The translations under genes and the position numbers were made by a program. DNA of 64,000 nt from a bacterium (lineage in GTDB: Bacteria > UBA10199 > 2-02-FULL-50-16 > JAJFLM01), in assembly GCA_965216315.1 (NCBI GenBank), contig CBDCFN010000016.1:576001-640000 (forward strand). Direction: 5' to 3'. The notes below the pieces were generated by a model. That model saw only the letters and a program-made list of their open reading frames with translations. It did no database searches and was not told the DNA's origin. Shown in pieces: positions 9,285 to 48,382 of the stretch. Position 1 is the stretch's first letter. Every line of letters starts with the position of its first letter.

Positions 9285-10001
9285 TTGCTGAGCTTAATAT
9301 TTGGACAAGGCCATCCCCCTGAAAAACGTAAGCGCTACCGGTATACCTTGCCGTCATCAGTGGCGGGTCGGGTTGAGTTGGAGTTGCCACTTGGTGAACG
9401 GCTAACGCTTCGGGTGGTCGATCTCAATGACGAGGCGGTATCCGGTCACTACGAGGGGGAACTCTCGATGCCGGTTGATGATTTGCCGCGGCTGAATGCG
9501 ACGCTGTATCTCGATGACTTGCAGTTTGCGTTTAAGGCGCAAATTATTCGTTATGCCAAAAATTTCCTCGTTTTTAAGTATTGTGATTATGATGAGGAGA
9601 CCTATAAGGAAGTCCTCGAATATTTCCCGGTGATATTAGGTCGGAGCTTGGAGGATCGCGGGGCGCAAAGTAAGACATCGGATTGGATACATGGTTCAAA
9701 TTATACCGATATTTTTATTCAGAACGAAGAAGACCGGAGTGGTGATATCCATAGTTTAACCTATGTTTCAGAGGATAACTATTTGCACTGGAACAGAGAA
9801 ACGGGCATGAAAACGGGGCAAGTTAAGCGAGAGACTTTTGCCGAAGGGTTAGGGTTTTCGAAGCGAGTGCAGAATCCGATTATAAAAGACGCTAGGCCTG
9901 ATGCGGGTCGAATAAAGCGCTTAGCAAGTATTGTTGCGCATTCCTCCTTGCCTGTAGAGACAAAGCAGGCCATTGCTGCAATTCTTGAGATTGGATCATG
10001 A
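9285..10001 (+). CDS. PilZ-domain-like protein
   Basis: RxxxR motif (RKRYR) followed by beta-strands and a degenerate DxSxxG (DLNDEA); ATGA overlap with MMPL copy 2; start uncertain. Confidence 0.55.
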   Translation: MLSLIFGQGHPPEKRKRYRYTLPSSVAGRVELELPLGERLTLRVVDLNDEAVSGHYEGELSMPVDDLPRLNATLYLDDLQFAFKAQIIRYAKNFLVFKYCDYDEETYKEVLEYFPVILGRSLEDRGAQSKTSDWIHGSNYTDIFIQNEEDRSGDIHSLTYVSEDNYLHWNRETGMKTGQVKRETFAEGLGFSKRVQNPIIKDARPDAGRIKRLASIVAHSSLPVETKQAIAAILEIGS

Positions 10002-12316
10002 TTAGTAAGCTCATTGATCTACTCGTCATTCATCCGAAGAAATTTCTTTTTACCGCGCTAGGGATTACCTTGTTGTTGGCGTTTTTTGTGCCCGAAATCC
10101 GCATGGTGACGTCAGTCGAGCAGCTCTACCCCTCTAAAAAGGATCCTGACCGCCAGGTATTGGAGGAGACGGAATATCTCTTTGGGGAGGACCCAAGTCT
10201 GATTGTCGCTTTGAAGACGGATGAGGTGTTTAAGAAAGATGTTTTGACTAAAGTGCGTGCCCTTACGCGTGATATAGAAAAAGTTGAACATGTGACTCGG
10301 GTCGATAGTCTGGCTACGGCCAAACGCATCATCAGTGACGAAGAGAGTATGTTGGCAGAGGATTTTTTGGAAAAAATTCCTCAGACAGAGAACGAAATCA
10401 AAGCCCTTCGCAAAGAATACTTTGATAACCCACTGTATCGTAACGCTTACGTTTCGGCCAACGGGCAATGGGCTATCTTTAATGTCGTATTAGAATCTGA
10501 AGATAAGATCGGCAATATCCCGCCAATCGTGAAGAAAATCCGTGCTCTAGCGGTTCAATATCAAGGGCCGGAACGAATATTTGTATCGGGGCGCAGTGAA
10601 CTCAATACCAGTTTCAATGATCTCATGCAAAGCGATCGCCGGCGGCTAATCCCGATTTTGATTGTGGTGATGCTGATCGTCCTTTATTTGAATTTTAGGT
10701 CGTTGGTTGGCTTCGCGCTTCCCTTAGTCAGTGTTTTGATAGGTGTTGTGTGGACATTCGGTGTTATGAGCCTTTTTGGAATCCCAATCTCCATCTTAAC
10801 TTCGACCTTGCCGTCCATTTTGATTGCGATCGGATGTTCTTACGCTATCTATTTTCTCGCGACCTATTTCACGCTCTGGTCTGAAGATCAGGATCCTGTC
10901 GATCATTTAAAGAGGGTGCTGAATAAAACTCTCTTGGCGGTTATCTTCTGCGCTTTTACTACGATTGTCGGGTTTTTTGGGCTCTCTTTAAATGATATCA
11001 ACTTGATCAAGCAGATGGGAGTTGCGGCGGTCATCGGGATATCAAGCCTGTTGGCGCTGACGGCTTTTGTCTTGCCGTGTTTTATCCTTGTAATCAGTGC
11101 ACTCCAGCAGAGCCGTCTGCGTCGGCAGCGGCCCATTCGCATCGCAGACAAGAAGCAGCAGCTTCACACGTTTCCAAGACGTTTCTTGAATCATTCGGGT
11201 AAATTGTTGTGCGGGTGGGCCATCGTCTTTATGATATGCCTGTTCTTTATTCCGCAGCTGAAAATTGAGAACGACCCGAGCACTTTTTTCAAGAAAGATT
11301 CAAGTACCTGGACTAATTTGCAATCATTGGTCAATGAATTGAATATGTACGGTCGATTCAAAATCGTTTTGAGCGCTAAGCAAGAAGACTATTTTAAAAA
11401 CCCCGAGGCATTGAAGCAGATCGAACTGTTGGGAACGAAGATTCAGGCTCTCGAAGAAACAGGCAAGACAATGTCGTTGGCGGATTTTGTGAAAACCATC
11501 AATAAGTCATTCAATGAACATAAACCGGAGTTTGAAGCGATTCCCCCCACCGAGCAGGAAGTCGCCCAGTACTTATTGCTCTATTCACTCTCCGGTGACG
11601 ACGAGAATCTTTATAGGTATGTCACTGAAGACTATAAAACGACTCAAATTGATATTAATGCAGGCGTGACGAGTAGTATCGATAGCTTGACCCTCGCTAA
11701 CAAAATTGAGGCTGACTGCAATGAGGTTTTTGGTGATGATGTCACCTGTCGCGCATCCGGTGCTTCGCTCATACTGGCGAAAAGCGCTCGTTATATTGCT
11801 TTGGGAGTTCTGAAGGGGTTTAGCCTTGCACTGTTTATTATTCTCATTTTGATGTTTGTGCTGTTCCGATCGATTCGGATTGGGCTGATCGCGATGATTC
11901 CAAATGTTGTTCCCACTTCGCTGCTGCTGAGTTTTATGGCGATTGCAGGCATTCCCTTGAACGTGGGTACGTCGATTATTTTGACGATCGCACTCGGTAT
12001 TGCTGTCGATGATACCTTGCATTTTTTCGTTCATTATTATCAGGAACTTAAACAGACGAACCATTTTTTGATTCAGTCCCAGACGGGAATTCGTATTACG
12101 GAAGATCAGAAGTGGGCGGTCGTCACAACCTGGCGGCACCTTTATAAGGCCCTGACGACCACAACGGCGACGATCGTGTGCGGTTTTCTCGTGTTGACTC
12201 TTTCGGATCTGACGCCTTTGGCTCTCTTTGGGTCTTTGACCGCCTTGACGATGTTTTTTGCCTTGCTCACCGATTTAACGCTGACGCCCGCCTTGATTAT
12301 GAAGACGAAGTTCTAG
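9998..12316 (+). CDS. MMPL/RND-superfamily lipid transporter, copy 2
   Basis: 772 aa, collinear with copy 1 (QLYPSKK, RVDSLATA, AMIPNV, GIAVDDTLHF). Confidence 0.9.
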   Translation: MISKLIDLLVIHPKKFLFTALGITLLLAFFVPEIRMVTSVEQLYPSKKDPDRQVLEETEYLFGEDPSLIVALKTDEVFKKDVLTKVRALTRDIEKVEHVTRVDSLATAKRIISDEESMLAEDFLEKIPQTENEIKALRKEYFDNPLYRNAYVSANGQWAIFNVVLESEDKIGNIPPIVKKIRALAVQYQGPERIFVSGRSELNTSFNDLMQSDRRRLIPILIVVMLIVLYLNFRSLVGFALPLVSVLIGVVWTFGVMSLFGIPISILTSTLPSILIAIGCSYAIYFLATYFTLWSEDQDPVDHLKRVLNKTLLAVIFCAFTTIVGFFGLSLNDINLIKQMGVAAVIGISSLLALTAFVLPCFILVISALQQSRLRRQRPIRIADKKQQLHTFPRRFLNHSGKLLCGWAIVFMICLFFIPQLKIENDPSTFFKKDSSTWTNLQSLVNELNMYGRFKIVLSAKQEDYFKNPEALKQIELLGTKIQALEETGKTMSLADFVKTINKSFNEHKPEFEAIPPTEQEVAQYLLLYSLSGDDENLYRYVTEDYKTTQIDINAGVTSSIDSLTLANKIEADCNEVFGDDVTCRASGASLILAKSARYIALGVLKGFSLALFIILILMFVLFRSIRIGLIAMIPNVVPTSLLLSFMAIAGIPLNVGTSIILTIALGIAVDDTLHFFVHYYQELKQTNHFLIQSQTGIRITEDQKWAVVTTWRHLYKALTTTTATIVCGFLVLTLSDLTPLALFGSLTALTMFFALLTDLTLTPALIMKTKF

Positions 12317-12466
12317 GAGTCAATATCTTGACTGTTAGGGCTCTCAATATGATAAAAAATAGTGTAGACTAAGCGGAGCGAGTGTCATTTATTCATATAA
12401 AACAACAGCTTACTTTTTTTGGCTACTGGTACGTTTATTGCACTAGCTAGAATGGTGGATTCATTT

Positions 12467-13906
12467 ATGTCGGGCAGAAACATCAGCATTGGGGGGATTT
12501 TGCTTGCCGCCCTGTTGGTAGGGGCGCTTTCAGGGCCGGTGCAGGCGCAGCCGAGTGCCGCGGATGAGCCGACGGAAGCGCCAGCTCCACCAACGATGCC
12601 CCCGCCAACGACACCCCCACTGCCGCCCCTGCCGGACGATCCCGCCGATAGTTCGACGCCACCGCCTCCCGGCGAAACAGGGTCTGAGTTGCCCAGCGAC
12701 CCTCTCGGGGAGCCTGAGGTCGGTGAAGTGGAAGAGCCGGCCGTAAAGTATAAAGTGGGTTATATTTGCAGCCCGGCGGCAGGCAATGTTGAGAATCAAA
12801 GTAACCTTTGTGTCGTGGATTCCGATGGAAAAAATCCACGTGTCATGGTGGTGGGCGGCATCCTTGCCGCGCCGGTTTGGTCTTTAGATGGCCAGTTCAT
12901 CTATTTTTCTTATGATAAGGGTCCCGCCAATCTAGAAGCGTTACCGGGGATGCCTCCGGTCAGCATTCCCCATAATTTTGATGTTCATTATCTGCGTTGG
13001 AGTGATGGAGCGCATCTGCAATTAACGGATAGTCCTGCGCCCGAATTCTTGATTCAAGATCTTCCTGCCGGAAATGAATTGCTGTTGACACGTCGTCGTT
13101 TTGTAAACGAAACCTCACAGCTGGGAGTTGAGAAAAAGAAGCTGGAGATCAAATTAAAGCTAATAGATTTTCCGTGTGTTTTTTCCATGACTGAACAGAA
13201 TTGCGAGAGTTTAGGCGCAACGGCAGGGGAGTTAGCGAACTCTGATTGCCCACCCTTGGCGCTCCCATTGCCTCTAGGCTTGTCTCCATTTGGACGCTGG
13301 GCGACCCAATCGGCAATGTTGTGTGATGAAGGGGTAAGGAAGGAAGGCTTTTTTCTCGTTGATACTGAAAGTGATAAGAGGATTCCGGTTTTGCATAAGG
13401 ACCTTAGTGCATGTCGCGTTATAGATTTTCACGGCGGCATTGCCGTCAATGACGATGGATCGCCCATGGTGATTCCTTTTAATACGAAATCTCTTAAAAT
13501 AGATAGCTGTGTCTTCTACTTGTCCCCGGAAAGGCAACGCATGGCTTACATCAACGTTAACGGTCAAGTTGGTGTGATTGATTTGAATAGCCGTCAACTC
13601 CAGTACATGACAGTCGAGGCGCCGGTTCAAGGCATTGATGCGCTGGCGTGGTCACCCGGTGGCAATGATTTGTTGGCCTTCAAGCGGGAAGGCGGGGGGC
13701 CGATGTATAGAATTTCGGCGCTAATCGTCGACGATGTCAGTTTTCTGGGTTACGGGAGTCAACCTGCCTGGAGTCCGATTCCGCTCGCGACGTATACCTC
13801 CGAAGCGACGGTTGCAGCGGCCGAAACTATTGAGCTCGACAATGTTCCCGCCGAGAAGACGCAAATCATCGCGCAGCCTGCCGCTGGATGTACCCTCATC
13901 CGCTAA
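12467..13906 (+). CDS. Secreted TolB/PD40-like beta-propeller protein with Pro-rich N-terminal arm
   Basis: Signal peptide ending VQA (likely ATG 12467); Pro-rich segment; repeats PVWSLDG, LSPFG, LSPER, AWSPGG, PAWSP; ends AAGCTLIR. Confidence 0.7.
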   Translation: MSGRNISIGGILLAALLVGALSGPVQAQPSAADEPTEAPAPPTMPPPTTPPLPPLPDDPADSSTPPPPGETGSELPSDPLGEPEVGEVEEPAVKYKVGYICSPAAGNVENQSNLCVVDSDGKNPRVMVVGGILAAPVWSLDGQFIYFSYDKGPANLEALPGMPPVSIPHNFDVHYLRWSDGAHLQLTDSPAPEFLIQDLPAGNELLLTRRRFVNETSQLGVEKKKLEIKLKLIDFPCVFSMTEQNCESLGATAGELANSDCPPLALPLPLGLSPFGRWATQSAMLCDEGVRKEGFFLVDTESDKRIPVLHKDLSACRVIDFHGGIAVNDDGSPMVIPFNTKSLKIDSCVFYLSPERQRMAYINVNGQVGVIDLNSRQLQYMTVEAPVQGIDALAWSPGGNDLLAFKREGGGPMYRISALIVDDVSFLGYGSQPAWSPIPLATYTSEATVAAAETIELDNVPAEKTQIIAQPAAGCTLIR

Positions 13907-13981: not shown

Positions 13982-15715
13982 GTGAAATCACTTATTATCA
14001 TCATTATGTTGCTCGGCTTGGCGGTAGGTGCCAGTGCCGCTGAGGAAGAAACGGTCTCGGAGGAGATCCCCCCGAATTGGAAGAAGTGGGAGACTCCCGA
14101 CGGGGCGGTTTATTATCAGCGGCCCGATGGGACAACGACGTGGGAAAATCCACTCAATCCGCCCGAGCTAGGTCCGGGAGTTGATGACAAGCAGGGTCCC
14201 GTTCCAAGCCAAACTGTCAGTGATGACGGGGCGCCCGAACCAGTTGAGGCAGAGCCGGCTCCTGTTGAGGCAACAACCGTTGGTGCGCGGCAGCCGAGAA
14301 AGAGCGGGGCGTTTATGGAGGGAAGCGCCGAAGCGGCTCCTGAGGTATCGGTGTTACCGGATGGTTGGAAAGAGTGGCGCACCGAAGACGGCAAACGCTA
14401 CTACGAGAAGCCGGATGGAACGACGACATGGGACCGCCCCAAAATTGTCTGGGAAAAGCCCTCGGCAGACGGAACACTGACGCTCACGCGCTATCATACT
14501 GAAAACATTAATTGGGCAAATGATTTTCGCTTTGGGGGGTCGCTAGAATATCGATTTTCCGGGTTTTTTAAAAATGATGTGAATAGTGATGAGCGTCTCT
14601 GGAATGATGTCATTTTTCAATTGTTTACCGATGTTCGCTGGAATGATCAGGTTCGCACTTATGGCAAGATGGAGTTGACAGGATATCTCCCGCAATCGGA
14701 TCCGCGTATTCGTATTATTCCGGAAGAAGCTTTTCTGGATCTTTATTTAGGTCCCGTTGATATTCGGGCGGGTTATCAGATTTATTCCTGGGGTGTGGCT
14801 GATCTGTATAATCCGACGGATAAGCTGAACCCGCGTGATTATATAGACATTCTCAATTACGAAAAAGAAGGTATCTTAAGTTTGAAGGTCGGTTATTCTT
14901 TTAGCAATTGGACGCTCGAAGGCATTTGGATTCCTTTGCCGGAGGAGAGTTATCTCCCTCAACCCGGCTGGCGCTTTTTTGAAATGCCGGGCGCCTCCCA
15001 GGGACTGCCGCCGGCAATCGTGTCGGACCTAATAGCCTTGCGGCCCGGTAAAAGTATTCGAAATCCGCAGTTTGCAGCCCGCTTGCGAGGGACTGCGGGG
15101 CGTTTTGATCTGGGTTTCAGCTATTTCTATGGCTTGGCGACAGTGCCGCAGCGTGAGGTGAGTGTAGGCACATTCAACCCTGTCGATAATACGGTGACGG
15201 TAACAGTGACCGAAGTATTTCCACGCGAGCATACCGTTGGGGCGAACATGGCAACCACGATCAAAAAACTCGGACTCCATTTGGAAACGGCTGCTGTTTT
15301 TCCTAAGGATACCGGAAGAGACATCGGCTCCGCTGATCAATTTCGCTTTAACTATGTTGTCGGCGGGAATTATACGTGGAGCGATGTCATTTCAGACCAT
15401 GATATAAGATTTTTCCTCGATTTTACTCACGAGATTCATCGTGATGAAAAAAGCACTAACCTTTCCCGAATTTTTCAGTTATCATTGCTCTCACGTCTGG
15501 AATATATCGTCTCAGACGACCTTAAAATCACTCTATCAGGGGCCTATAATTTCGATGATCGCGATTATATTATTCGGCCTCGTATCGAGTGGGGTTTTTA
15601 TGAGGGCTTTACATTGACCGCCGGTGCCGATTTCCTGGGTGGGCCGAGCGGAAGCTTTTTTGACCTGTTTGAAGAGGATGACCGGGGCTATGCCTGGCTA
15701 AAGTACGAATTTTAG
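13982..15715 (+). CDS. Outer-membrane beta-barrel (DUF1302-like) with two N-terminal WW domains
   Basis: Signal peptide; WW-like repeats at aa 29-57 and 125-153; EAFLD..DIRAGYQIYSWGVAD..NPTDKLNP barrel motif; C-terminal WLKYEF. Confidence 0.8.
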   Translation: MKSLIIIIMLLGLAVGASAAEEETVSEEIPPNWKKWETPDGAVYYQRPDGTTTWENPLNPPELGPGVDDKQGPVPSQTVSDDGAPEPVEAEPAPVEATTVGARQPRKSGAFMEGSAEAAPEVSVLPDGWKEWRTEDGKRYYEKPDGTTTWDRPKIVWEKPSADGTLTLTRYHTENINWANDFRFGGSLEYRFSGFFKNDVNSDERLWNDVIFQLFTDVRWNDQVRTYGKMELTGYLPQSDPRIRIIPEEAFLDLYLGPVDIRAGYQIYSWGVADLYNPTDKLNPRDYIDILNYEKEGILSLKVGYSFSNWTLEGIWIPLPEESYLPQPGWRFFEMPGASQGLPPAIVSDLIALRPGKSIRNPQFAARLRGTAGRFDLGFSYFYGLATVPQREVSVGTFNPVDNTVTVTVTEVFPREHTVGANMATTIKKLGLHLETAAVFPKDTGRDIGSADQFRFNYVVGGNYTWSDVISDHDIRFFLDFTHEIHRDEKSTNLSRIFQLSLLSRLEYIVSDDLKITLSGAYNFDDRDYIIRPRIEWGFYEGFTLTAGADFLGGPSGSFFDLFEEDDRGYAWLKYEF

Positions 15716-15864
15716 AGGATCAATGAAAATGACCACCTGCATCGTTGCCTCAAAATTCAGTCATTGCGACGTACTTAAAGTACGACTCATTCCTGAATTT
15801 ATCAGCGCCTTGCATCTGGAACATTTTCATTAATCCTTATACTGTGAATTGCAAGGAGAGTAGA

Positions 15865-16695
15865 ATGTATCGATATGTAGGTTATACCGGGATTATCACG
15901 TTCACGTTTCTGCTAATAGCGAGTAGCGGGCATGCACAAACGGCGAGCGAAGCGCCGGCGGGAACCGCTCAACCGACGGCTCCGGCTCAACCGCAGTTAA
16001 CGGCTCGCCAGATGATGCAGAAATTTGTCGATCATTATGATAATCGTGATGAGGCGACTAAGATGCAAATGGTGCTGATCTCCAAGACAGGTTCACAACG
16101 GAATCGACGCATGAGTATCAAACGTCGCACTGATGAAAAAGATCTTGAAAAGATAATGATCCGTTTCCATGAACCCAATGATATCCGCGGGACCTCTTTG
16201 CTGACTTGGGAACAGGCGGCTGGTAAGGATGATTTGCAATGGATTTATCTGCCGGCACTGAAAAAGACCAAGCAGATTTCAGGTGGCGCCAAAAAAGATG
16301 ATTTCGTCGGCAGTGACTTTACCTATGAGGATCTGCGCCCCGAAAAATTGGATGACTTTAATTACACGTTAGTCGGAGCTCAGGATGGCCGCGTCATTAT
16401 TGATGCAACGCCACGTATCAGTGATTCCGGTTATAGCCGCCGGCGCGTCTGGCTGCGGCAGGACAATTATTTTGCAGTGGGTATCAAGTATTACGACCAT
16501 AAAGGCCAATTCCTCAAAAAAATGAGCGTTTCGGGTTTGGTGAATGTCGCCGGTGGGCGCGTACGTGCCAATAAAGTGAGGATGGAAAACGTTCAAAATG
16601 GCCATGCGACTGAATTGAATGTCCATAGCCGTCAGTTAGACACGGGCTTGAAAGAAGCCGCGTTTACCAAGCGGGAATTGGAAAAGGGCGTCTAG
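15865..16695 (+). CDS. Outer-membrane lipoprotein-sorting protein (LolA-like carrier)
   Basis: AAGGAG RBS before ATG 15865; signal peptide; FHEPNDIRGTSLL, DDLQWIYLPALKK and FVGSDFTYEDL motifs typical of LolA-like partners of MMPL transporters. Confidence 0.85.
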   Translation: MYRYVGYTGIITFTFLLIASSGHAQTASEAPAGTAQPTAPAQPQLTARQMMQKFVDHYDNRDEATKMQMVLISKTGSQRNRRMSIKRRTDEKDLEKIMIRFHEPNDIRGTSLLTWEQAAGKDDLQWIYLPALKKTKQISGGAKKDDFVGSDFTYEDLRPEKLDDFNYTLVGAQDGRVIIDATPRISDSGYSRRRVWLRQDNYFAVGIKYYDHKGQFLKKMSVSGLVNVAGGRVRANKVRMENVQNGHATELNVHSRQLDTGLKEAAFTKRELEKGV

Positions 16696-16696
16696 T

Positions 16697-17866
16697 TCAA
16701 TCAGCGGTAAAGTAATTCTGACGACCGCGCGAGTAAAGCACTTCAGAGATCATATATTTCTGTATCTCGGTGGTTCCTTCAATAATAGAAAGGATTTTTG
16801 AATCGTTGACTAGCTTGGCGATTGGATACTCGAGGGAAATACCGGCTCCCCCCATAATTTGAGCTGCTTTTAGAGTGACTTCTTCGGCTGTTGATGTTGC
16901 ATAGGCTTTAGCCAGTGATGCCTCGTAGCGATAATCCTGGCCGAGAGAGGCTTTCCATGCCGCCCGCCAAGCTGCAAGTCTTGATGCCTCTGTCGCCATT
17001 TGCATTTGCGCAATGTATTGGCGAATGACCGGATGATCCCCAATGGCTTTTCCAGCCGAGTAACGAGTTCTTGAATAATCAATGCATTCATCAATGGCAC
17101 GTTGTTGTATGCCCGTAGCTATGGCAGCCGTTCCGGTCCTGCCACGCGAGAGAGAACGCATGGCTACCTGATAGCCGTTGCCCTCTTTGTCTAGAAGGTT
17201 TTCACGCGGGATGAAGACATCTTCAAAAGTGAGACCGGATGTATCGGCGGCTTTAAGGCCAAGCTTTTTTTCAGGGCGCGCTTTGATGACTCCATCCAGG
17301 TTGCCGGGAACGATAAAGGCTGATAGCTCAGAAATTTGTTGAGACCCCTTAGGGTAGGCGAAAACAATATAGATGCCGGCACGATTTGCATTGGATATCC
17401 ACGCTTTCTGACCATTGATGACAAAGCCATCATTCTTTGTTTCGTAATGGGTTTTTAAGCCGCCAAGGTCGGAGCCGGTTTGGGGCTCGGTTAAGGCAAA
17501 CGAAATCAGCATTCGCTCTTCACATAATAAGGTAAGCCACTTCTTTTTTTGTTCTGCCGTGCCGAAATAGTCAATAGGTGCGGAAGCCAGATTATTAGTC
17601 AGTATGGCGAGTGCTATACCTGCACAAGCATGTCCCAGGATTTCTGCAATAAGGACGGACTCAGCAGGTCCCATGTTACCTCCACCATACTCATCTGAAA
17701 TTCCCAAGTTAACGATACCTAACTCTTGAGCTTTATCGATAATATCTTCAGGAAAAGTATGGCTTTCATCATATTCTGCTGCTTTGGGTAGGATTTCGTT
17801 TGAGGCAAAATCTTTTGCCATATCCACGATCAAGCGCTGGTCTTCAGTCAAAGAAAAATCAATCAT
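16697..17866 (-). CDS. Acyl-CoA/acyl-ACP dehydrogenase
   Basis: FALTEPQTGSD, NGQKAWISN, KLGLKA and IIEGTTEIQ; start probably 17866 behind AAGGAG, overlapping the upstream stop. Confidence 0.92.
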   Translation of the reverse strand: MIDFSLTEDQRLIVDMAKDFASNEILPKAAEYDESHTFPEDIIDKAQELGIVNLGISDEYGGGNMGPAESVLIAEILGHACAGIALAILTNNLASAPIDYFGTAEQKKKWLTLLCEERMLISFALTEPQTGSDLGGLKTHYETKNDGFVINGQKAWISNANRAGIYIVFAYPKGSQQISELSAFIVPGNLDGVIKARPEKKLGLKAADTSGLTFEDVFIPRENLLDKEGNGYQVAMRSLSRGRTGTAAIATGIQQRAIDECIDYSRTRYSAGKAIGDHPVIRQYIAQMQMATEASRLAAWRAAWKASLGQDYRYEASLAKAYATSTAEEVTLKAAQIMGGAGISLEYPIAKLVNDSKILSIIEGTTEIQKYMISEVLYSRGRQNYFTAD

Positions 17867-25973: not shown

Positions 25974-25982
25974 GAGGTCTCA

Positions 25983-27476
25983 ATGGATTCAATTCAACAG
26001 CAGTTATCAGATATACTCACTTCAATTCTTGATGTTGAGGAAGTAGATCCACGAGAAGAATTAACAAGCCTAGGCATTACGTCGATTGATTTAATGCGTT
26101 TAGCGGCTCGGCTGGAGAAAAATTTTGGTTTTCGCCCGCAAGTTAACGAGTTTATGAAGCTGACATCGATAGAGAAATTAGCCGAATTCTATCAATCGCA
26201 TATAGATACTGTTGAGAGCATAAATGCTCAAGCGTTAAACTGTGCTGAGGCTTCAAGGATAGAGTTTGCATTTAACCGCGATGATCCGAATGATATTCGC
26301 CAGGATATTCGCTTGCATGAGGCCATTAAGCCAGCGGCGGCAACTCATTCAGTCACTGGAAGTCCAACAAATCTATTTGTGACAGGGGCAACAGGATTTT
26401 TAGGCGCACATGTTCTCCATAGCCTGCTGCAAGAGACTCAGGCAACCATTAGCTGTCTGGTTCGGGCAGAGAATTCCGATCAGGGGATGAAGCGGATCTT
26501 GAAAAACCTCGAGTACTATAAGCTCTGGGATGACAGTTATTCAGAACGGGTTAAGCCGGTGGTCGGGGATATATCGCAGCCCTTATTGGGTCTTAGCGTG
26601 AAAGATTTCCATCGGGTAGCTTCTGAGGCTCAAGCTCTCTATCACATCGGGGCAGTCGTTAATTTTGTTCATTCTTACGACATGCTCAAAGAAACTAATG
26701 TGGACGGGACGATTGAAATGCTTCGCTTGGCTTGTGCTGATAAGCAGGCACCTCTTTATTATGTTTCGACTTATGGAGTTTTCAATTCTCCTGAATACCT
26801 TAAATATAAAATCATTGATGAATCCACTTCTACGGATCACTGGGAATTATTGGCTAATGGATATGAGCAAAGTAAATGGGTTTCGGAAAAAATATTAGCC
26901 ATTGCCAAGGAAAGAGGGATTCCCGTGACAATATTCCGACCGGGTACTATTGCAGGTGATAGTCGAAACGGCATATTTAATTCAAAAAATGATATTTTAT
27001 CATTGATGATCCGCGGGAGTCTGCAGATGAAACTTGTTCCCAAGATTGATATGGATGTGGACTTAACTCCAGTTGACTATATAAGCAAGGCACTTACAGT
27101 AATTTCATTACAACCTGATGTAGAGGGAAAAACATATCATTTGGTGAATCCCCAATCGGTTTCCTATGGTGATTTCGTGAAGTGGATCCGGAACTACGGC
27201 TATGATTTTGAGGAAACATCGTATCAAGAGTGGCGCCAAGCATTATTGAAAGTAGATCGGAGCAATGCGTTATTCCCATTGCTCTCATTATTTGAAGCAA
27301 TGGAGACGTCAGACCGATTCAGTATTCCTTATATGCGGTCAGATGAAACACTCCGCGCATTAAAAGACAGTAAGTTAACATGTCCAGCGCCTGAGAATCG
27401 ACTTCTGCAGACCTATTTTTCCCGCTTTATTAAGGAGGGATTTTTGGATGTTCCTGAGAGACGTGAAATCCATTAG
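25983..27476 (+). CDS. Stand-alone carrier protein + thioester reductase (R/TD) domain
   Basis: LGITSIDL carrier motif; TGATGFLG, YVST, GYEQSKW (YxxxK) and FRPG; AGGAGG RBS. Confidence 0.92.
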   Translation: MDSIQQQLSDILTSILDVEEVDPREELTSLGITSIDLMRLAARLEKNFGFRPQVNEFMKLTSIEKLAEFYQSHIDTVESINAQALNCAEASRIEFAFNRDDPNDIRQDIRLHEAIKPAAATHSVTGSPTNLFVTGATGFLGAHVLHSLLQETQATISCLVRAENSDQGMKRILKNLEYYKLWDDSYSERVKPVVGDISQPLLGLSVKDFHRVASEAQALYHIGAVVNFVHSYDMLKETNVDGTIEMLRLACADKQAPLYYVSTYGVFNSPEYLKYKIIDESTSTDHWELLANGYEQSKWVSEKILAIAKERGIPVTIFRPGTIAGDSRNGIFNSKNDILSLMIRGSLQMKLVPKIDMDVDLTPVDYISKALTVISLQPDVEGKTYHLVNPQSVSYGDFVKWIRNYGYDFEETSYQEWRQALLKVDRSNALFPLLSLFEAMETSDRFSIPYMRSDETLRALKDSKLTCPAPENRLLQTYFSRFIKEGFLDVPERREIH

Positions 27477-27487
27477 AAGGTGAATTT

Positions 27488-28639
27488 ATGAATACTCCAA
27501 GTGCCTACCATTCCTATTTTAATCAGGCTCATGATGTTGTCCGCAAGCGTGTGCGTAACTTCATTGATAGTGAGGTGAAACCCTATATCGATGAATGGGA
27601 AGAGAATGAGCAGATTCCTAGAGAACTCCATTATCGTGCAGCTGAGCTAGGAATATTGGGGATAGGTTTCCCTGATTCATGTGGCGGGCTCTCGGGGGAT
27701 GTATTTTTTCAAGTTGCGGCAAATGAAGAGATAGCACGTGCTGGATCATGTGGGTTGTCTGCCAGCCTAGCTTCTCATGCGTTGGCATTACCTCCTATAG
27801 TTAGGGATGGAACAGATGAACAGAAAGAAAAATTTGTGAAACCAGTTTTATTGGGAAAGAAAATAGCTGCAGTCGCGATTTCAGAGACTGAACGAGGCTC
27901 AGATGTTGCAAACATAACGACGACCGCTGTGCGTGATGGAGATTTCTATATCGTTAACGGGAAGAAAGATTTCGTTACTTGTGGAGGACGTGCAGACCAA
28001 ATAACTTGTGCAGTTCGGACTGGAGGTGAAGGTGCTCATGGAATCAGTCTTTTAGTTATCGAAGCTGGCACTCCTGGATATTCTGTGAAGCGGGGACGCA
28101 AATTCATGGGTTGGTGGTCTGCTGAAATTGTAGAAATCGAACTGAAAGACTGTCGTGTTCCCATCTCCAATCGAATCGGGAATGAAAATGAAGGCTTTTA
28201 TAGTATTATGGCTAATTTCCAGATGGAAAGACTCCACTTGTCAGTCATTGCTAATACAAGTTCTCAGGTAGCCTATGAGGAAGCTATGGCATACTCAAAG
28301 GAGCGAGAAGTCTTTGGCAAGGAGATATTTAATTATCAGGTTACGCAGCACAAACTCGTGGATATGCTAACTCTATTGGAAGCAACTAAGGCGTTTACTT
28401 ATCAAGTTGCTGCTAAAATTGGAGCGGGAATAGATCAGACGAAAGAAATAGCAATGGTTAAAAACTTTGCTTGTGACGCTAGTAATAAGATTATCTATGA
28501 TGCTGTTCAGCTTTTCGGAGGTAAAGGTTATGTGCGTGGATACGTAGTCGAGAGACTCTTTCGTGATAATCGTGCGCTTGCGATTGGAGGCGGGACGTCA
28601 GAGATCATGAAGGAGATCGTTGCTAAGTTCATGCTTTAA
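27488..28639 (+). CDS. Acyl-CoA/acyl-ACP dehydrogenase
   Basis: AISETERGSD, NGKKDFVT, FQMERL, QLFGGKGY and IGGGTSEIM. Confidence 0.92.
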   Translation: MNTPSAYHSYFNQAHDVVRKRVRNFIDSEVKPYIDEWEENEQIPRELHYRAAELGILGIGFPDSCGGLSGDVFFQVAANEEIARAGSCGLSASLASHALALPPIVRDGTDEQKEKFVKPVLLGKKIAAVAISETERGSDVANITTTAVRDGDFYIVNGKKDFVTCGGRADQITCAVRTGGEGAHGISLLVIEAGTPGYSVKRGRKFMGWWSAEIVEIELKDCRVPISNRIGNENEGFYSIMANFQMERLHLSVIANTSSQVAYEEAMAYSKEREVFGKEIFNYQVTQHKLVDMLTLLEATKAFTYQVAAKIGAGIDQTKEIAMVKNFACDASNKIIYDAVQLFGGKGYVRGYVVERLFRDNRALAIGGGTSEIMKEIVAKFML

Positions 28640-31097
28640 CTCCGCTTTTTTTGTATTGAACCAGCAAGTACTGTTCACCATTTACTTCTATGCGTTCTGC
28701 TTTAAGGTCCATAAGGACGGGACCTGACTTGCCTATCATTTCGATGTTTTTCCATTCTCCCGTACCTAATCGGATGGTACTTTGCACCATTGCCGGTATG
28801 CGTGTTAAGTCGGCTTTTCCAATTAAACCTTGAATGTTGAGGGCCTCTACTTCGGAACGAGTATAGCCGAGGAAAGTCTTAAATTTAGTGCTGTTGAGGA
28901 TGGGCAAAATGAGACCGCTCTCGCTATTAATGACTTTGTATAGCGTTACAATCAGATCTAAATTGTCGAGGACAATTTTGTTGGCCTCGAGTCGCTTCAG
29001 GGCTTTGGCGCGTTCGTCCGCTCTAATAAGCGAAAACCAACCCCAGTCTTTTGCTGTCGTTCCAATGGTGGCAGCATGAAGGTCGTAATGAACATAGCCA
29101 TCGGTTTTTTTTAATCGTATCAGTTCCAAACGGCCACTACCGGTCGTGGCGACAGTATCGAGAAATTCTTTTAAGGAGCTTAAGTCATCCGGGTGACAGC
29201 GTTGCTTCAGGACAGTCGATGAAATCTCTTGTCCTAGGAGATCCTTTCCGGCCTGGCTGATTGCCCGTAAGCGGAATCCAGCATGGTTGCTCCATAAGCC
29301 GACGGGCTCTGTCCACTGCCCCCAGACAATATCCGCCACGCTATCGATCAGCGGCGAGTCGAAGCTCAGTTGGGATACCCAGCGCGATTCAAGCTCCTCA
29401 ATTTTTCGGAGTATTCGCTTCCGGTTAGCGCGTATCAGTTGGCCTTCATTGGAAGGAGCCGGAAAACGATCACGCGCGCGTTTATATTCATCGATAGCAT
29501 CTTTAAGTTGACCATTCTTTTCTAAGCTTTGAGCGCGCCAAGTCAGCAGTTCGTAGAGCATCGTCCCTGCATTTTTATATCGGTCTTCAGGGTTACGGGA
29601 AAGCGCTGTTAAGATAATACCTTGAATTTCGATTGGTATGTCTCGTGTAGGACTGACGTGTCGTAGTGGCCTTGCTTCATTTCGGAGCTTCTTCATAAGC
29701 TGATCAACGCAGAGTGCATTCCCTTTCTTGCTATTTGGACTGTTGAATGGCAGCACGTCGGTAAAGAGCTGGTATAGTGTTACGCCTAATGCATAAACAT
29801 CGCGTGTGTAAGATTCTTTTCTTTCATGTGTAAATGCTTCGGGCGGCATGAAATGAGGTGTTCCTGCTGCATCACAATCCTCATCTTCCTGGCAGGCGAG
29901 GCCGAAATCGCCAAGACGCGCTTTCCCGCGATAGAGAAATAGATTTTCAGGTTTAATGTCACGATGAATAATTTTTTGATCATGCGCGACCAGTGCAGCC
30001 GTTACGACTTGTTCGGAGATAGTAAGTCTTTCATTTAGGTCGTAGTCGTGTGAAATAGCCCATTCGTATAAGTTTGAGTCTAATATTTCCATCACAATGA
30101 AAGGTGCGCCTTTGGTCGTGAGACCACGTTCGTATACTGTTACTATGCTGTGCTCTTGGATGCGTGCCTGGAGTTCGGCTTCGCGTGCCATGCATTCAGT
30201 GAGTTTTGCGGCATAGACAGCGTCTAAGTTTTCGATGCTTAATGCCTTGATTGCAACTTCACGTCGCAGCATGCGATCATAGGCTCTATACACAGTTGCC
30301 TGAGCTCCTTCGCCCAGAACCTGTTGGAGCAGATAAGGAGAATTAAACCGCCCCTCTATTGCCAATGTTCGAGGCAATGTATTCGCTGCAGTAGATATGA
30401 CTTTTTTGCGCGAAGCGCCTGGGCCAAAACGGACTGATGGAATGATGGTTACTGGAGTCACGTGGATTTCACCGGTTTCTCCGATGACGCGACGAAACGG
30501 AATGACCCTATCCGTGCTGTCAAGCTGTTGATCGGCTGGTGAGCGGATTAAACCTGTTTCCATTAAAAAATTTTCTAATGATTCGAACGTGGGCGGGAGT
30601 ATACCGTCGTTTATTAGATCATCTATCAGTTCTATTCCGCTAATAGTGGTTTTATCTTGTAATCGCTCAATTTTTTCTAAGAGCGTATCAATGATAAGTC
30701 GCGCAGGTGCATTTAGGTGATTGCTCCAGAGGCTTAGCCGATAATTTTCTAATAGAGCCTGTGCCGTTTGACGGCTTAGTACGCTATCTAAAGATGCCGC
30801 GGTGAGCGCACGTATGGCATAACGGACTTGATCCGTTGCATGAAGCCGTTCCCTGAATAGCGGAATAACTGCAGGCAATAATAGTTTTGAGTTGCCAGCG
30901 AGATGTTGGAATTCGCTGGATGTCTTGCTGAACGGTCGACCGTCTTTATTGTAGGCCAGGCCGTAGAAGTGTTGATCTGCTGCAGATTGGGGGAAATTTG
31001 TCGTGCCTTCAAGAGATTGTAAGGCGATGGCTTGGCCATGCAGAAAACCAGTGAGGGATACTGGAGCCGTAGATGATAGGATTCCTAGTGTAACCAT
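28629..31097 (-). CDS. Hanks-type Ser/Thr protein kinase with C-terminal PAS-like domains
   Basis: LGEGAQATVY, VAIK, HRDIKPEN, DFGLA, GTPHFMPPE and DVYALG; C-terminal CHPDD and FLGYTRSEV PAS-like segments. Confidence 0.88.
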   Translation of the reverse strand: MVTLGILSSTAPVSLTGFLHGQAIALQSLEGTTNFPQSAADQHFYGLAYNKDGRPFSKTSSEFQHLAGNSKLLLPAVIPLFRERLHATDQVRYAIRALTAASLDSVLSRQTAQALLENYRLSLWSNHLNAPARLIIDTLLEKIERLQDKTTISGIELIDDLINDGILPPTFESLENFLMETGLIRSPADQQLDSTDRVIPFRRVIGETGEIHVTPVTIIPSVRFGPGASRKKVISTAANTLPRTLAIEGRFNSPYLLQQVLGEGAQATVYRAYDRMLRREVAIKALSIENLDAVYAAKLTECMAREAELQARIQEHSIVTVYERGLTTKGAPFIVMEILDSNLYEWAISHDYDLNERLTISEQVVTAALVAHDQKIIHRDIKPENLFLYRGKARLGDFGLACQEDEDCDAAGTPHFMPPEAFTHERKESYTRDVYALGVTLYQLFTDVLPFNSPNSKKGNALCVDQLMKKLRNEARPLRHVSPTRDIPIEIQGIILTALSRNPEDRYKNAGTMLYELLTWRAQSLEKNGQLKDAIDEYKRARDRFPAPSNEGQLIRANRKRILRKIEELESRWVSQLSFDSPLIDSVADIVWGQWTEPVGLWSNHAGFRLRAISQAGKDLLGQEISSTVLKQRCHPDDLSSLKEFLDTVATTGSGRLELIRLKKTDGYVHYDLHAATIGTTAKDWGWFSLIRADERAKALKRLEANKIVLDNLDLIVTLYKVINSESGLILPILNSTKFKTFLGYTRSEVEALNIQGLIGKADLTRIPAMVQSTIRLGTGEWKNIEMIGKSGPVLMDLKAERIEVNGEQYLLVQYKKSGVKA

Positions 31098-31188
31098 GAC
31101 AATGGGGCCAGTTTGCGCATTTTGTCGCCGATTGATGGAATGAGTTGTGCTTTAGTTAAGCTCATTGAAGAAAAAGTGTTTACACGAG

Positions 31189-31932
31189 TTAATGTTTATA
31201 TTGCCAAAATTTTAAGCAGGTCACTTCATGTTGTGCGGCGATAGCGGCGATGGTTCCGGGGTCAGGCTGGAAGGAATGGAGACTCCAAGGGATTTGGTTT
31301 AGCTTAGTTGATTGGAACTCGATACGGCATTGCTGTTCACTGGGGTGACCGGAAACGGAGAATTCCTGAAGCTTCGGTTTTCCGCTCAGTCCACCACCAC
31401 ATGCCTTGAGTACGGCTTCTTTGCGGGTCCAGAGACTCAAAAAGGTGGCATGCTTGAGCTGATCGGAGGCTTCGGCATATTCGGCATACTCTGTTGCAGT
31501 GAAATTGCGGCGGGCGATCATGTTGTCTTCGTTCCTTCTTGAAAGGCACTCAACATCAACGCCTAGCGAGCGATCTCTTCCTATTGCGATTAATCCGATA
31601 CGTTGTGAATGTGACATGTTAAATTCATAACTGATGGACCCATAGGGTCGCTTCAACGCCGGTTTGTCAAACTCGCCGTAAGTAAACTCAAATTGGGTTG
31701 GAGAACAATTTGTATAGTATGATAAAATCAGGCGAAGTGCGTTATGTGCATTTGTATAGCGACGCTCTAATTCGGCCGTAGCAAATTTAGCTGCTTGTTC
31801 TTGTTCCTTAGGAGAAAGGAAGTTTTTTCCTGGTGATGAGTCAAGATCAATTTTCCAGATATGAATCGTATCAGAAGATTCTATAGTTAGTCTTTTAGGT
31901 GGTTCCAGCCACTGCGTGTTAACGTTTGTCAT
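31189..31932 (-). CDS. sfp: Sfp-type 4'-phosphopantetheinyl transferase
   Basis: KP, FNMSHS, LGVDVE and WTRKEAVLKACGGGL. Confidence 0.92.
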   Translation of the reverse strand: MTNVNTQWLEPPKRLTIESSDTIHIWKIDLDSSPGKNFLSPKEQEQAAKFATAELERRYTNAHNALRLILSYYTNCSPTQFEFTYGEFDKPALKRPYGSISYEFNMSHSQRIGLIAIGRDRSLGVDVECLSRRNEDNMIARRNFTATEYAEYAEASDQLKHATFLSLWTRKEAVLKACGGGLSGKPKLQEFSVSGHPSEQQCRIEFQSTKLNQIPWSLHSFQPDPGTIAAIAAQHEVTCLKFWQYKH

Positions 31933-32374
31933 GATTGATCTGGCGGTACGCCTCGTAGAGGGCGATTCCCACTGAAGTCGCTAAGTTTAAGCTCCTAACT
32001 GGGCCCCACATAGGGATCCGCACTAACCGATTCTCGTGATTAGCGTAGATTTTTTCATCGAGACCGCTACCCTCATTGCCGAATGTCAGTATGTCCGAGT
32101 CCTTGTAGCGAATATCCGCGTAGTCTTTTTTGCCTCTCGTGCTGAGAAACCACATTCGGGACCCTGGGTTTTGCTGCGCGATATCATCAAGAGAATCGAC
32201 GATTTCCAGCTCTAAATCGTCCCAATAGTCCAGGCCTGAGCGGCGGATCTCTTTGGAGTCGAGATGGAAACCCAAGGGACGAACCAGGTAAAGCGGGGTA
32301 TTGGTAGCGACGCAGAGTCGACCGATATTGCCGGTGTTTTGCGGGATTTCGGGTTGAAAAAGGGCGATCATCAT
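31919..32374 (-). CDS. trmL: tRNA (cytidine/uridine-34-2'-O)-methyltransferase
   Basis: PEIPQNTGNIGRLC, RRSGLDYW, FGNEGSGL and VRSLNLA. Confidence 0.93.
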   Translation of the reverse strand: MMIALFQPEIPQNTGNIGRLCVATNTPLYLVRPLGFHLDSKEIRRSGLDYWDDLELEIVDSLDDIAQQNPGSRMWFLSTRGKKDYADIRYKDSDILTFGNEGSGLDEKIYANHENRLVRIPMWGPVRSLNLATSVGIALYEAYRQINHDKR

Positions 32375-32508
32375 GGTTCTTCAGCAGTTGCAACAATCTA
32401 ACTATCTGTCAATTAAATCTACTATTTGCAGATATTTTTTTAAATGACATCGATGATGAATGAGTGCAAAATCTCAAGGTTAACTAGCTTATTGATGCGA
32501 GTTTCATA

Positions 32509-33981
32509 GTGAAAATAGGATTAATATTTCCCAGTAAAACTCCCACGAATGCGCATCGTCGTCCGATGAGTCAGTTTCAAAATCCCTTGGTGCGATGGCT
32601 TTTATCCTGGTCCAGTAGAAATGTATTGCCTTCGGGGATCAACCTAGTTGTTCCTGATGACGGTGGGATGGACATCATTCTTAGCCTTACCTACCCCCAC
32701 TTGGCAGCTCTTACGCCTCCAGGCCACGAGATCAAAATTATTAATGAGAATGTCCAGGAAATCGATTTTGAGGAGGACTTTGACCTTATTGGCATAACTG
32801 TATGGACCGCTTTTGCAAGGCGTGCCTACGAATTAGCGGCACATTATCGAAGCAAAGGGTCGAAGGTTGTCTTAGGAGGACCTCATGTAACTCTCTTGCC
32901 TGAGGAAGGGATTAGGTATGCCGATAGTGTCGTCATTGGTGAAGGTGAACTCACGTGGCCCCAGGCAGTCGATGATGCCCTGAAAGGCGAGCTAAAATCT
33001 TTTTATAGCCCCCCGCGCACGATTACGTTGTCCGATGATGAAGGGATCATACCGGCTTTTCCGAGAAGAGATTTAGTAGACAAATCATACTACGTTTTTC
33101 AGAATTTAGTGCTGACAGGCAGGGGATGCCCCTTTGATTGCCACTTTTGTTCCGTGACAACTATTTATGGCGCAAAATATCGACACCGCTCAGTGGAAAG
33201 TGTCATCAATGAAATTTCAAATTTAAAAGAGAAGTTCTTTATCTTTATTGATGACAATTTATTTGGGAATAGACCTCATGCAAAAGAGCTCTTTAAAGCG
33301 TTGACTCCCCTTAAGAAAATTTTTCGATGTGAAGCAACTATTAATATAGCACGCAATGAAGAAATGGTTTCTCTTCTTGCAGATGCCGGATGTCAGGTTG
33401 TTTCCGTGGGGGTAGAATCTCTTTCTTCTGAGAATATAACAGAAATGCATAAACTTCAAAATAATCCAGAGGAATATGGTAAAGCGATCAAGCTATTTCA
33501 TAAATATGGAATTGGGTTTTGGGCGGGGCTAATTATGGGCTTCGATGAAGATGATATCGGTGTTGGTGAGAGAATGATCAGTTTTTGCGTCGAAAATAAT
33601 GTGGATTTTCCAATGCTTAATATTCTCATACCGTATCCGACAACTAAATTATATTATCGCATCAAGCAAGAAGGTCGCCTGTTTCATGAGGATTGGAATA
33701 GATACACAGGCCGGTATGCAGTTTTTCAGCCGAAAAAAATGTCTCCGGAAGAACTCGAGCAGCTCTATGTGGATACAATGAGAAAACTCTATTCTGTACC
33801 CATTATACTGCGAAGGATTTCACATTGGGGAATTCTTACGAAAAAATGGTGGCGGTATCTAACGGTCAATATGGCCATTAAACATGAAATTGAGGCGATT
33901 TGTGACGCGAGGCAAGCGGAAATCGATGCCTCGAAGAAACAAGAAGTGACTCTAGATCGCCCCGTGTTCGAGCGCCCATGA
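32509..33981 (+). CDS. Cobalamin-binding radical SAM protein
   Basis: LAALTP..DLIGIT..VVLGGPHVT..VIGEGE B12-binding domain; RGCPFDCHFC (CxxxCxxC); FIDDN and GVES. Confidence 0.9.
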   Translation: MKIGLIFPSKTPTNAHRRPMSQFQNPLVRWLLSWSSRNVLPSGINLVVPDDGGMDIILSLTYPHLAALTPPGHEIKIINENVQEIDFEEDFDLIGITVWTAFARRAYELAAHYRSKGSKVVLGGPHVTLLPEEGIRYADSVVIGEGELTWPQAVDDALKGELKSFYSPPRTITLSDDEGIIPAFPRRDLVDKSYYVFQNLVLTGRGCPFDCHFCSVTTIYGAKYRHRSVESVINEISNLKEKFFIFIDDNLFGNRPHAKELFKALTPLKKIFRCEATINIARNEEMVSLLADAGCQVVSVGVESLSSENITEMHKLQNNPEEYGKAIKLFHKYGIGFWAGLIMGFDEDDIGVGERMISFCVENNVDFPMLNILIPYPTTKLYYRIKQEGRLFHEDWNRYTGRYAVFQPKKMSPEELEQLYVDTMRKLYSVPIILRRISHWGILTKKWWRYLTVNMAIKHEIEAICDARQAEIDASKKQEVTLDRPVFERP

Positions 33982-48380: not shown

Positions 48381-48382
48381 AA

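Follow-up and report, generated by a model that had tools for sequence, protein, structure and literature searches.

It has been known that FAAL-primed nonribosomal peptide synthetase (NRPS) lines with reductive release underlie the cyanobacterial columbamides and serinolamides, the mycobacterial glycopeptidolipids and the isonitrile lipopeptides. In such lines a fatty acid, an amino acid and a terminal reductase (R) domain give a lipo-amino-alcohol, and in mycobacteria MmpL transporters export lipids of this kind. Here we describe a locus of similar layout at positions 16697-31932 of a 64-kb stretch of bacterial DNA (positions 576,001 to 640,000 of contig CBDCFN010000016.1, here contig C16 of genome G000, which is 98% complete; the whole stretch is hereafter called the window). 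We tentatively favour the reading that this region is an accessory island between an older lipid-transport cassette and the spoU gene, and that its likely product is a serine-derived lipid, assembled on a one-module NRPS. The columbamide-type lines contain ordinary condensation (C) domains and are not known to have an ElbD-like acyltransferase, and they were compared with the window by logic, not by sequence.

Open reading frames were taken from a six-frame listing and domains from Pfam and NCBIfam scans, and all coordinates are relative to the window. The features of the island are the following.

16697-17890, reverse strand: ACAD1, a member of the acyl-CoA/acyl-ACP dehydrogenase (ACAD) family with three ACAD Pfam domains, at the left island edge.
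17859-20663, reverse strand: ligase-ACP-PlsC protein, ElbD-like without the reductase domain (PF00501, PF13193, PF00550, PF01553).
20664-21020, no strand: divergent promoter region of 357 bp between the ligase-ACP-PlsC gene and the NRPS gene.
21021-25973, forward strand: NRPS composed of a FAAL-like ligase, an acyl carrier protein (ACP), a condensation domain of the heterocyclisation (Cy) lineage and an adenylation (A) domain (Pfam, NCBIfam).
25983-27476, forward strand: peptidyl carrier protein (PCP) plus terminal thioester reductase (PF00550, PF07993, TIGR01746).
27488-28639, forward strand: ACAD2, an ACAD-family flavoprotein (Pfam), last gene of the NRPS operon.
28629-31097, reverse strand: Ser/Thr protein kinase of 822 aa inside the island, with the Pkinase domain at residues 257-508 as its only assigned part.
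31177-31192, no strand: second copy of an operator-like element, upstream of the kinase gene.
31189-31932, reverse strand: Sfp/HetI-type phosphopantetheinyl transferase (PPTase; PF01648; HetI model 145 bits, below cut-off).

Two metagenomic synthetases come closest to the window NRPS. P0443 (2379 aa) carries FAAL-ACP-Cy-A-Ox-PCP-R in one chain, where Ox is an oxidase domain and the A domain has a Ser-like code, and it ends in a reductase like the window system. P0128 (2107 aa) carries FAAL-ACP-Cy-A-Ox-PCP and is 45% identical to the window NRPS. Both share with it the domain order, the Ser-type A residues and the motifs (N/D)H..DGFS, PIIF(T/S)S and P.TW(L/M)D, and GCFT is shared by P0128 but not by P0443. 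Unlike the window NRPS, however, both have the Ox domain inside the A domain; the window has none, its PCP-R protein is encoded by a separate gene, and an ACAD gene follows. Among modules of known chemistry, the Cy modules of BmdB, EpoB, PchE and HMWP2 are the best matches and have the catalytic dyad conserved, while the window domain differs by having NHxxxD in place of DxxxxD. The donor also differs: a FAAL-loaded fatty acyl-ACP would be used in the window, whereas the oxazoline, oxazole and thiazoline modules use an aryl or aminoacyl group.

The closest described counterpart of the second synthetic operon is ElbD of Myxococcus xanthus, a reductase-ligase-ACP-AGPAT protein of ether-lipid synthesis, with which the window protein shares the ligase-ACP-AGPAT core and its order. 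ElbD has an N-terminal FAR-like reductase domain that is absent from 17859-20663 by Pfam, and unlike elbD, the window gene is paired with an ACAD gene and lies opposite an NRPS gene. Pfam recognises neither an HAD-type (elbB) nor a stand-alone NAD-epimerase (elbE) gene in the island; elbC was not searched for. ElbD-like proteins without the reductase domain, or split from it, have been reported as widespread and uncharacterised in other phyla (PMC9131029 and bioRxiv 10.64898/2026.06.23.733905), and the acyltransferase activity of ElbD itself is only putative (PMC9131029). It has also been reported (PMC13012048) that N-acyl serinols of gut bacteria, which are fatty amides of serinol, are made by single N-acyl synthase (nas) enzymes. 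These compounds may resemble a possible open-chain scaffold of the window product, but the window route would be an NRPS with reductive release and not nas. The myxofacycline cluster was considered as an equivalent and rejected, since it follows a different logic (PMC9298251). No characterised equivalent was found in the literature covered, outside which most subscription papers fall.

The NRPS consists of a FAAL-like ligase (residues 1-552), an ACP (579-643), a Cy-lineage domain (671-1108) and an A domain (1144-1638), which is not followed by a carrier in this protein. In its N-terminal third the best fatty-acid-ligase model is PRK05850 (460.8 bits against a cut-off of 775), and the C-terminal subdomain PF23024 and the fused ACP are present. 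The specificity code of the A domain, read at the motif anchors, is DVWHVSLIDK, where we take the anchor positions to lie at FDxS, xFxPS, xxSGEA, NxYGPTE and GKxDRK. Its first eight residues are identical to the 8-mer of PvdJ-M1-Ser, which is printed with "ser-like specificity" in PMC3207962. With this exact Ser code over the eight listed residues, the A domain is predicted to activate serine; the Ser code that the original prediction, an earlier reading of the same DNA, had claimed is thus borne out by DVWHVSLI. PDB alignments of the A domain, with LgrA only, added nothing to this assignment.

The condensation domain was compared with 30 PDB matches. The best seven were all Cy domains (BmdB-Cy2, two further BmdB chains, EpoB, PchE, HMWP2 and Irp2), with E values from 1.9e-22 to 9.2e-17, and the first ordinary C domain, that of surfactin synthetase, followed at 6e-15. 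By an estimate made by eye from the alignments, identity to the solved Cy domains is ~20-25%. In the HMMER alignment, the Thr of PIIFTS and the Asp of TWMD align to FTS and YLD of BmdB-Cy2. The placement of the dyad on these BmdB motifs follows residue numbers that we assume for BmdB, together with a spacing of 30 residues. The numbers are absent from PMC9547227. According to that paper, the aspartates of DxxxxD are structural, and cyclodehydration is putatively catalysed by a dyad of Asp and Thr. By these alignments we assign the domain to the Cy lineage, with the predicted Thr/Asp dyad kept.

We then examined the relatives in a scan of 1.84 billion protein representatives. Most of the 150 matches listed were giant multi-module NRPSs, and among them stood a small clade of eight single-match relatives with 33-44% identity. 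In seven of the eight, FAAL-ACP is followed by the Cy domain at the same place (the remaining one, P0452, is N-terminally truncated), and three (P0128, P0443 and P0452) contain a nitroreductase-type Ox domain. The members of the clade have N or D at the first signature position, and cyanobacterial relatives of ~2850 aa with 30-34% identity have ordinary HHxxxD starter C domains. Since an Ox domain can act only once the ring is closed, the Cy clade likely cyclises.

In the protein encoded at 25983-27476, the PCP occupies residues 7-69 and the thioester reductase residues 131-488. The R domain scores 343.5 bits with TIGR01746 (cut-off 213.35), and the TGATGFLG nucleotide-binding motif and the YEQSK (YxxxK) motif are present. 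The NRPS gene ends with TAG; the PCP-R gene, which is in the same frame, has GGAGG 6 nt ahead of its ATG. Because the stop is followed by a ribosome-binding site before the PCP-R start, the two-gene split between A and PCP-R is genuine. ACAD2 has Gly at the MCAD-type base position and a Glu in the motif FQMERL. We take this Glu arrangement to be that of isovaleryl-CoA and long-chain dehydrogenases, the alternative-base rule being our assumption. The best NCBIfam matches of ACAD2, including the prolyl-PCP dehydrogenase RedW (192.6 bits), are all below cut-off. In an oxazoline-4-carbonyl thioester, C4-C5 is an alpha,beta position, and for this reason the missing Ox domain could be replaced by ACAD2.

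The ligase-ACP-PlsC protein contains a fatty-acid ligase (residues 30-545), an ACP (582-642) and a PlsC/AGPAT acyltransferase (722-851), whose motifs HX4D (H743...D748) and P817-E-G-T820 are invariant in nine homologues. The family is large, with 6856 matches among 7996 scored candidates. Among the 120 listed, nearly all contain PF00501, PF00550 and PF01553 at 29-36% identity, in Acidobacteriota, Nitrospirota, Omnitrophota and others, and only eight are close homologues with 44-55% identity. A protein scan of genome contigs for this close clade gave no relative among 37 pattern matches, and alignment scans with generic AMP-ligase patterns (the best 80 of at least 585 genome stretches and the best 80 of at least 599 metagenome stretches) gave only relatives of 25-36%. 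At G037:C8:17515-18024, in another genome of the same class, a 6068-aa open frame shows PlsC-like sequence with 46% identity to residues 698-865 of the window protein; this frame may encode a megasynthase with a built-in acyltransferase. The start of ACAD1 overlaps the end of the ligase-ACP-PlsC gene, and ACAD1 keeps the Glu in IIEGTTEIQ, a position whose role we presume.

Since the exact Ser code, the Cy domain with its dyad, the R domain above cut-off and the intact PlsC motifs occur together, an alkyl-oxazoline or N-acyl-serine unit, reductively released, is a fair prediction. The chemistry that the original prediction had proposed for the NRPS half, an N-acyl-serinol or an alkyl-oxazoline alcohol, appears well founded, and we sharpen it to a likely oxazoline.

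The gene content around the island argues for an insertion. The features that flank it, which comprise a presumably ancestral transport cassette on the left and spoU and a radical-SAM gene on the right, are the following.

9285-10001, forward strand: PilZ-like protein of 238 aa, first gene of the cassette.
9998-12316, forward strand: MMPL/HAE3-type RND inner-membrane transporter of 772 aa (PF03176, 138.7 bits).
12419-13906, forward strand: secreted protein of 495 aa with a Pro-rich linker and a TolB/PD40-like beta-propeller (weak PD40).
13982-15715, forward strand: DUF1302-like outer-membrane barrel of 577 aa (PF06980, 26.8 bits, cut-off 23.2).
15745-16695, forward strand: LolA-like/DUF1329-related periplasmic lipid-binding protein (PF17131, 174 bits; PF07044, 48.9 bits).
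31919-32374, reverse strand: SpoU-family RNA methyltransferase (PF00588), ancestral right flank.
32509-33981, forward strand: B12-binding radical-SAM protein (Pfam; all NCBIfam matches far below cut-off).

The matches to PF03176, PF06980 and PF17131/PF07044 in the cassette are all above the Pfam cut-offs, and the MMPL protein scores 224 bits with TIGR00921 (HAE3), below the cut-off of 352. The PilZ-like protein has no Pfam match at E<=0.001; 27 of its 30 nearest ESM Atlas clusters are PilZ-bearing with a top score of 0.95, which is a lead only. The PD40 match of the propeller is weak (E=0.0014), its nearest Atlas clusters are PD40/TolB-like at 0.90-0.91 (again a lead), and its N-terminus looks signal-like by eye. 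The barrel has two N-terminal WW-like repeats at residues ~30-58 and ~125-153 (W...YY...W..P; Pfam WW E=0.37).

When we compared this cassette with AmeABCD of Castellaniella defragrans (PMC6394551) and with the cofit DUF1302/DUF1329/BNR-propeller/RND cluster of Shewanella and Pseudomonas (bioRxiv 10.1101/072470), the same four-part composition was seen. The window cassette differs from the AmeABCD type in that its propeller is PD40/TolB-like and not COG4447/BNR (Ycf48-like), its gene order is another one, and a PilZ-like protein and the WW-like repeats are added. The function of such systems is disputed between export of a cell-wall component, solvent efflux and use of fatty esters (PMC6394551, bioRxiv 10.1101/072470), and only predicted structures are available for AmeABCD-type systems (PMC13499233).

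The phylum set comprised 93 genomes including G000, all of one class, and G001 (93% complete, 8% contamination) is of the same family as G000. By tblastn against the first 20 kb of the 24-kb contig C438 of G001, collinear genes were seen. The orthologues of the cassette are 41% (PilZ-like), 69% (MMPL), 36% (propeller), 57% (DUF1302) and 57% (LolA-like) identical, and those of the right flank are 67% (spoU), 46% (PD-(D/E)XK nuclease) and 51% (UvrD) identical. In G001, spoU follows the LolA-like gene after 42 bp; none of the genes from ACAD1 through the PPTase gene and no radical-SAM gene is present at this place, and neither the ligase fusion nor the NRPS had an orthologue in searches of the whole G001 genome. 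Elsewhere in the phylum set, strong matches to the ligase-ACP-PlsC protein (E<=1e-90) occur in three other genomes, all of family f9 (G074 with 50% identity, G073 and G077 with 30-32%). NRPS matches (E<=1e-60) occur in 19 other genomes and cover only the FAAL(-ACP) part or the A domain, the longest of them, in a G014 protein of 3728 aa, being 27% identical across residues 590-1647; among the other 92 genomes, no full-length NRPS orthologue was found.

The GC content at third codon positions (GC3) is 0.36-0.48 in the seven island genes, 0.485-0.55 in the five cassette genes and 0.605 in spoU. Because the G001 cassette runs straight into spoU without biosynthetic genes, and because GC3 is low in the island, we read 16697-31932 as an accessory insertion; insertion of these ~15.2 kb in the G000 lineage beside an existing cassette would be the simplest history. 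At the island edges we saw no direct repeats, integrase or tRNA-like marks, only short repeats at chance level, and no tRNA scan was run. At the left junction the stops of the LolA-like gene and ACAD1 are 1 bp apart, and at the right one the PPTase gene shares 14 nt with the 3' end of spoU. Four short-read runs, made on two samples of one study, yielded contigs that cover the region with zero differences and bridge both junctions (X1 record 4, 15155-34000; X2 record 9, 16004-17831; X4 record 29, 31196-32055), so the adjacency of island and cassette is not an assembly artefact. This study may itself be the source of the assembly, and the support is to that extent not fully independent. The B12-radical-SAM gene (GC3 0.405) is absent at the syntenic place of G001. 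This gene and a sigma-54 two-component pair at 6197-9237 both have low GC3 (0.40-0.42), neither is matched in the 20 kb compared on the G001 contig, and they may be further indels, separate from the island.

Several other features of the cassette and its surroundings were observed. The PilZ-like stop overlaps the MMPL start and the gene is conserved in G001, a hint that an RND lipid transporter may be controlled by c-di-GMP. A paralogue of the MMPL gene, 42% identical to 9998-12316, lies in the window at 2143-4461; it is preceded by 261-1109 (weak DUF3187 match) and 1149-2051, and genes for an Spt-like protein and an OlsE-like hydroxylase lie a few kb away, so that this neighbourhood could be a ceramide-linked transport set. 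The Spt-like gene (G000:C16:570434-571672; serine palmitoyltransferase model 469.5 bits, cut-off 640) is ~4.3 kb upstream of the window, and therefore the cassette may have its own, older lipid cargo.

The island PPTase is the sole PF01648 match in G000. G001 and G074 have one PF01648 match each, 27-30% identical to the window PPTase and located elsewhere. Since the only PPTase of the genome must also serve fatty-acid synthesis, its position is weak evidence that it belongs to the cluster.

The region between the two synthetic operons points to their coupling. The 9-mer ACTGTTTAC occurs three times in the window, always in the divergent region 20664-21020, against 0.21 expected, and none of 100 shuffles reached three. 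Two copies form a perfect 9-4-9 palindrome at 20765-20786, and the third is a half-site at 20923-20931. The element at 31177-31192, a near-copy ~80 nt upstream of the kinase start, pairs with 20769-20784 as an inverted repeat, 94% complementary over 16 nt. Searches upstream of the transport cassette gave no such palindrome. Only the kinase core of 28629-31097 gives matches in G001, G002, G003 and G074. G000 has four carrier domains, namely AcpP and three in the island, and we suggest that the shared 9-mer, its further copy at the kinase gene and these few carrier domains count for a coupling of the two synthetic operons.

A sigma-54-like -24/-12 element with two mismatches lies at 20945-20959, 62-76 nt upstream of the NRPS start. 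Window-wide, matches with up to two mismatches are not enriched (55 found, 57 expected), and we regard the site as no more than suggestive. For 14000-23999, which includes this region, no RNA record is listed. The best such match in the window (6049-6063, reverse strand, one mismatch) is upstream of the gene 5056-6000 and just downstream of a sigma-54 response-regulator gene. The island encodes no DNA-binding regulator, and a sigma-54 activator with a Fis-type HTH is encoded at 6197-7591.

Based on these observations, we suggest the following course of synthesis. A fatty acid would reach the ACP through the FAAL domain. The Cy-like domain would then join the acyl group to Ser-S-PCP and likely close the ring by cyclodehydration, giving a 2-alkyl-oxazoline-4-carbonyl thioester. 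ACAD2 would possibly dehydrogenate the tethered intermediate, either the oxazoline to an oxazole, in place of the Ox domain of the relatives, or the acyl chain. Release by the R domain would give an aldehyde or alcohol, and the divergent ElbD-like ligase-ACP-acyltransferase with ACAD1 would probably esterify the alcohol with a second fatty acid.

Here, we need to consider the points that weigh against this reading. First, an ACAD gene (78% identical to ACAD1) stands after the ligase fusion in G074, and the 11.8-kb contig holds no NRPS, reductase or MMPL gene; a MacB/FtsX-type permease gene, a small PlsC gene, greA and an ABC ATPase gene come after the ACAD gene. That the PlsC domain would O-acylate the NRPS product is plausible, and this stand-alone ligase/ACAD pair weakens the idea. 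Second, we searched 167 loci with 23 window proteins by tblastn. Full-length members of the ligase family were found at 25 loci (22 distinct places), none of which has an MMPL, LolA-like, NRPS or R neighbour at E<=1e-15; an ACAD1-like neighbour was seen at the G074 place only and a PPTase-like neighbour at one G073 place. Because the family is common without such an NRPS nearby, its normal acceptor may be a lysophospholipid. Third, close homologues of the NRPS, the PCP-R protein and the ligase (the best 120 matches of each) could not be placed on a shared contig; one unconfirmed coincidence concerns the ligase homologue P0010 and the R-only protein P0355, both from ENA and both on a single contig of 6650 bp. 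Fourth, the signature NHLGIDG (residues 809-815) is exactly neither DxxxxD nor HHxxxDG: the first Asp of DxxxxD is replaced by Asn, and a His stands where C domains carry the catalytic His. Fifth, it cannot be predicted whether the R domain gives an aldehyde or an alcohol. Finally, the direction of the indel is judged from a single genome of the same family and by parsimony, and with two genomes carrying the cassette, loss in G001 is the alternative.

In another reading, which we consider possible although unlikely, the island holds two unrelated modules. NRPS, PCP-R and ACAD2 would then make a diffusible alkyl-oxazol(in)e aldehyde or alcohol, a signal or an antibiotic, and the ligase-ACP-PlsC protein with ACAD1 would re-acylate lysophospholipids with scavenged, possibly 2-enoyl, fatty acids. 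This fits the G074 pair, which stands alone beside a permease and a second PlsC gene, and the fused relative P0443, which needs no acyltransferase. The nearest bifunctional NCBIfam model is that of Aas, the acyl-ACP-phospholipid acyltransferase, but the scores are far below cut-off (PRK08633, 191 bits against 1221; PRK06814, 178 against 1349). The domain order of Aas also differs from that of 17859-20663. The two-module reading further draws on the reductase-less ElbD-like proteins being widespread and uncharacterised (PMC9131029). What speaks for a single system instead is that the operons diverge around a repeated motif that is unique to this place in the window, and that both are absent from G001 and both have low GC3.

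The fourth point concerns the ring. Because NHLGIDG has Asn for Asp and the C-type His, the Cy-like domain may only condense, and the product would be an open-chain N-acyl-serinal or N-acyl-serinol with no heterocycle. The window NRPS has no Ox domain, and N-acyl serinols are known bacterial lipids, though they come from N-acyl synthases (PMC13012048). On the contrary, the best structural-family matches are all Cy domains and the Thr/Asp dyad is retained, the lost Asp belongs to a pair described as structural, not catalytic (PMC9547227), and Ox domains, sensible only after ring closure, occur in three of the eight clade relatives that share (N/D)H..DG. We regard this open-chain outcome as rather unlikely.

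The original prediction had gone further and read 9998-33981 as one complete and dedicated pathway, in which an N-acyl-serinol or alkyl-oxazoline alcohol is O-acylated by PlsC into a two-tailed, ceramide-like lipid and delivered to the outer membrane by the MMPL, LolA-like and barrel proteins. All the parts it listed are real open reading frames that carry, by Pfam and NCBIfam, the domains assigned to them at the positions given, and its PPTase is real, although as the only one of the genome it says little on membership. The right end of that range takes in spoU and the B12-radical-SAM gene, for neither of which a pathway link was found, and the Ser/Thr kinase (28629-31097), PilZ-like (9285-10001) and propeller-like (12419-13906) genes had gone unmentioned. 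By Pfam and NCBIfam, 9998-33981 encodes no serine palmitoyltransferase. The idea of a ceramide-like lipid made without this enzyme is weakened by the Spt-like gene upstream of the window. The linkage of export and synthesis genes in relatives, which the original prediction had itself named as its test, failed: the G001 cassette, 36-69% identical, is whole without any synthetic gene, the ligase/ACAD pair of G074 has no NRPS or MMPL gene on its contig, and no full-length NRPS orthologue was found in the other 92 genomes. Thus a dedicated pathway is improbable, in spite of the stops 1 bp apart, the presence of all needed activities by domains, a cassette composed like systems for which transport of hydrophobic molecules through the envelope has been proposed (PMC6394551; bioRxiv 10.1101/072470) and the lipid-rich neighbourhood (Spt-like gene, OlsE-like hydroxylase gene, second MMPL gene), since the cassette stands alone in G001, lacks the operator-like motif of the island, is set apart from it by GC3 and belongs to a type whose transport direction is disputed. 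As far as the gene order of G001 tells, the cassette predates the island and appears not to be dedicated to it.

Two further observations in the window touch none of these genes. A GlnE-type adenylyltransferase is encoded as two overlapping genes (37711-39135 and 39132-40274), each with GlnE and GlnD_UR_UTase domains, and G001 has two open reading frames of similar size at the syntenic place. A bacterial alpha-2-macroglobulin of 1936 aa lies beside a PBP1c-type bifunctional penicillin-binding protein at 46191-54193 on the reverse strand.

Returning to the favoured reading of an accessory island with a one-module synthetase, we can extend it to a specific product, quite improbable as a whole: a glycerol-free, two-tailed neutral lipid composed of fatty esters of 2-alkyl-oxazol(in)e-4-methanol, that is, a ring-masked N,O-diacyl-serinol, in which an ACAD would act for Ox by alpha,beta-dehydrogenation of the PCP-bound oxazoline and which the ancestral cassette would carry to the outer membrane. 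This would be a class not yet described. The adjacency of the genes looked like a complete pathway, and one syntenic relative indicates that the transporter is older. If the favoured reading is true, the island would join a one-module FAAL-Cy-A(Ser)-R synthetase with an ElbD-like ligase-ACP-acyltransferase, two kinds of enzymes that are usually studied apart. It would supply a concrete candidate acceptor for the reductase-free ElbD-like acyltransferase, and it would give the testable idea that an ACAD may stand in for the Ox domain of an NRPS.

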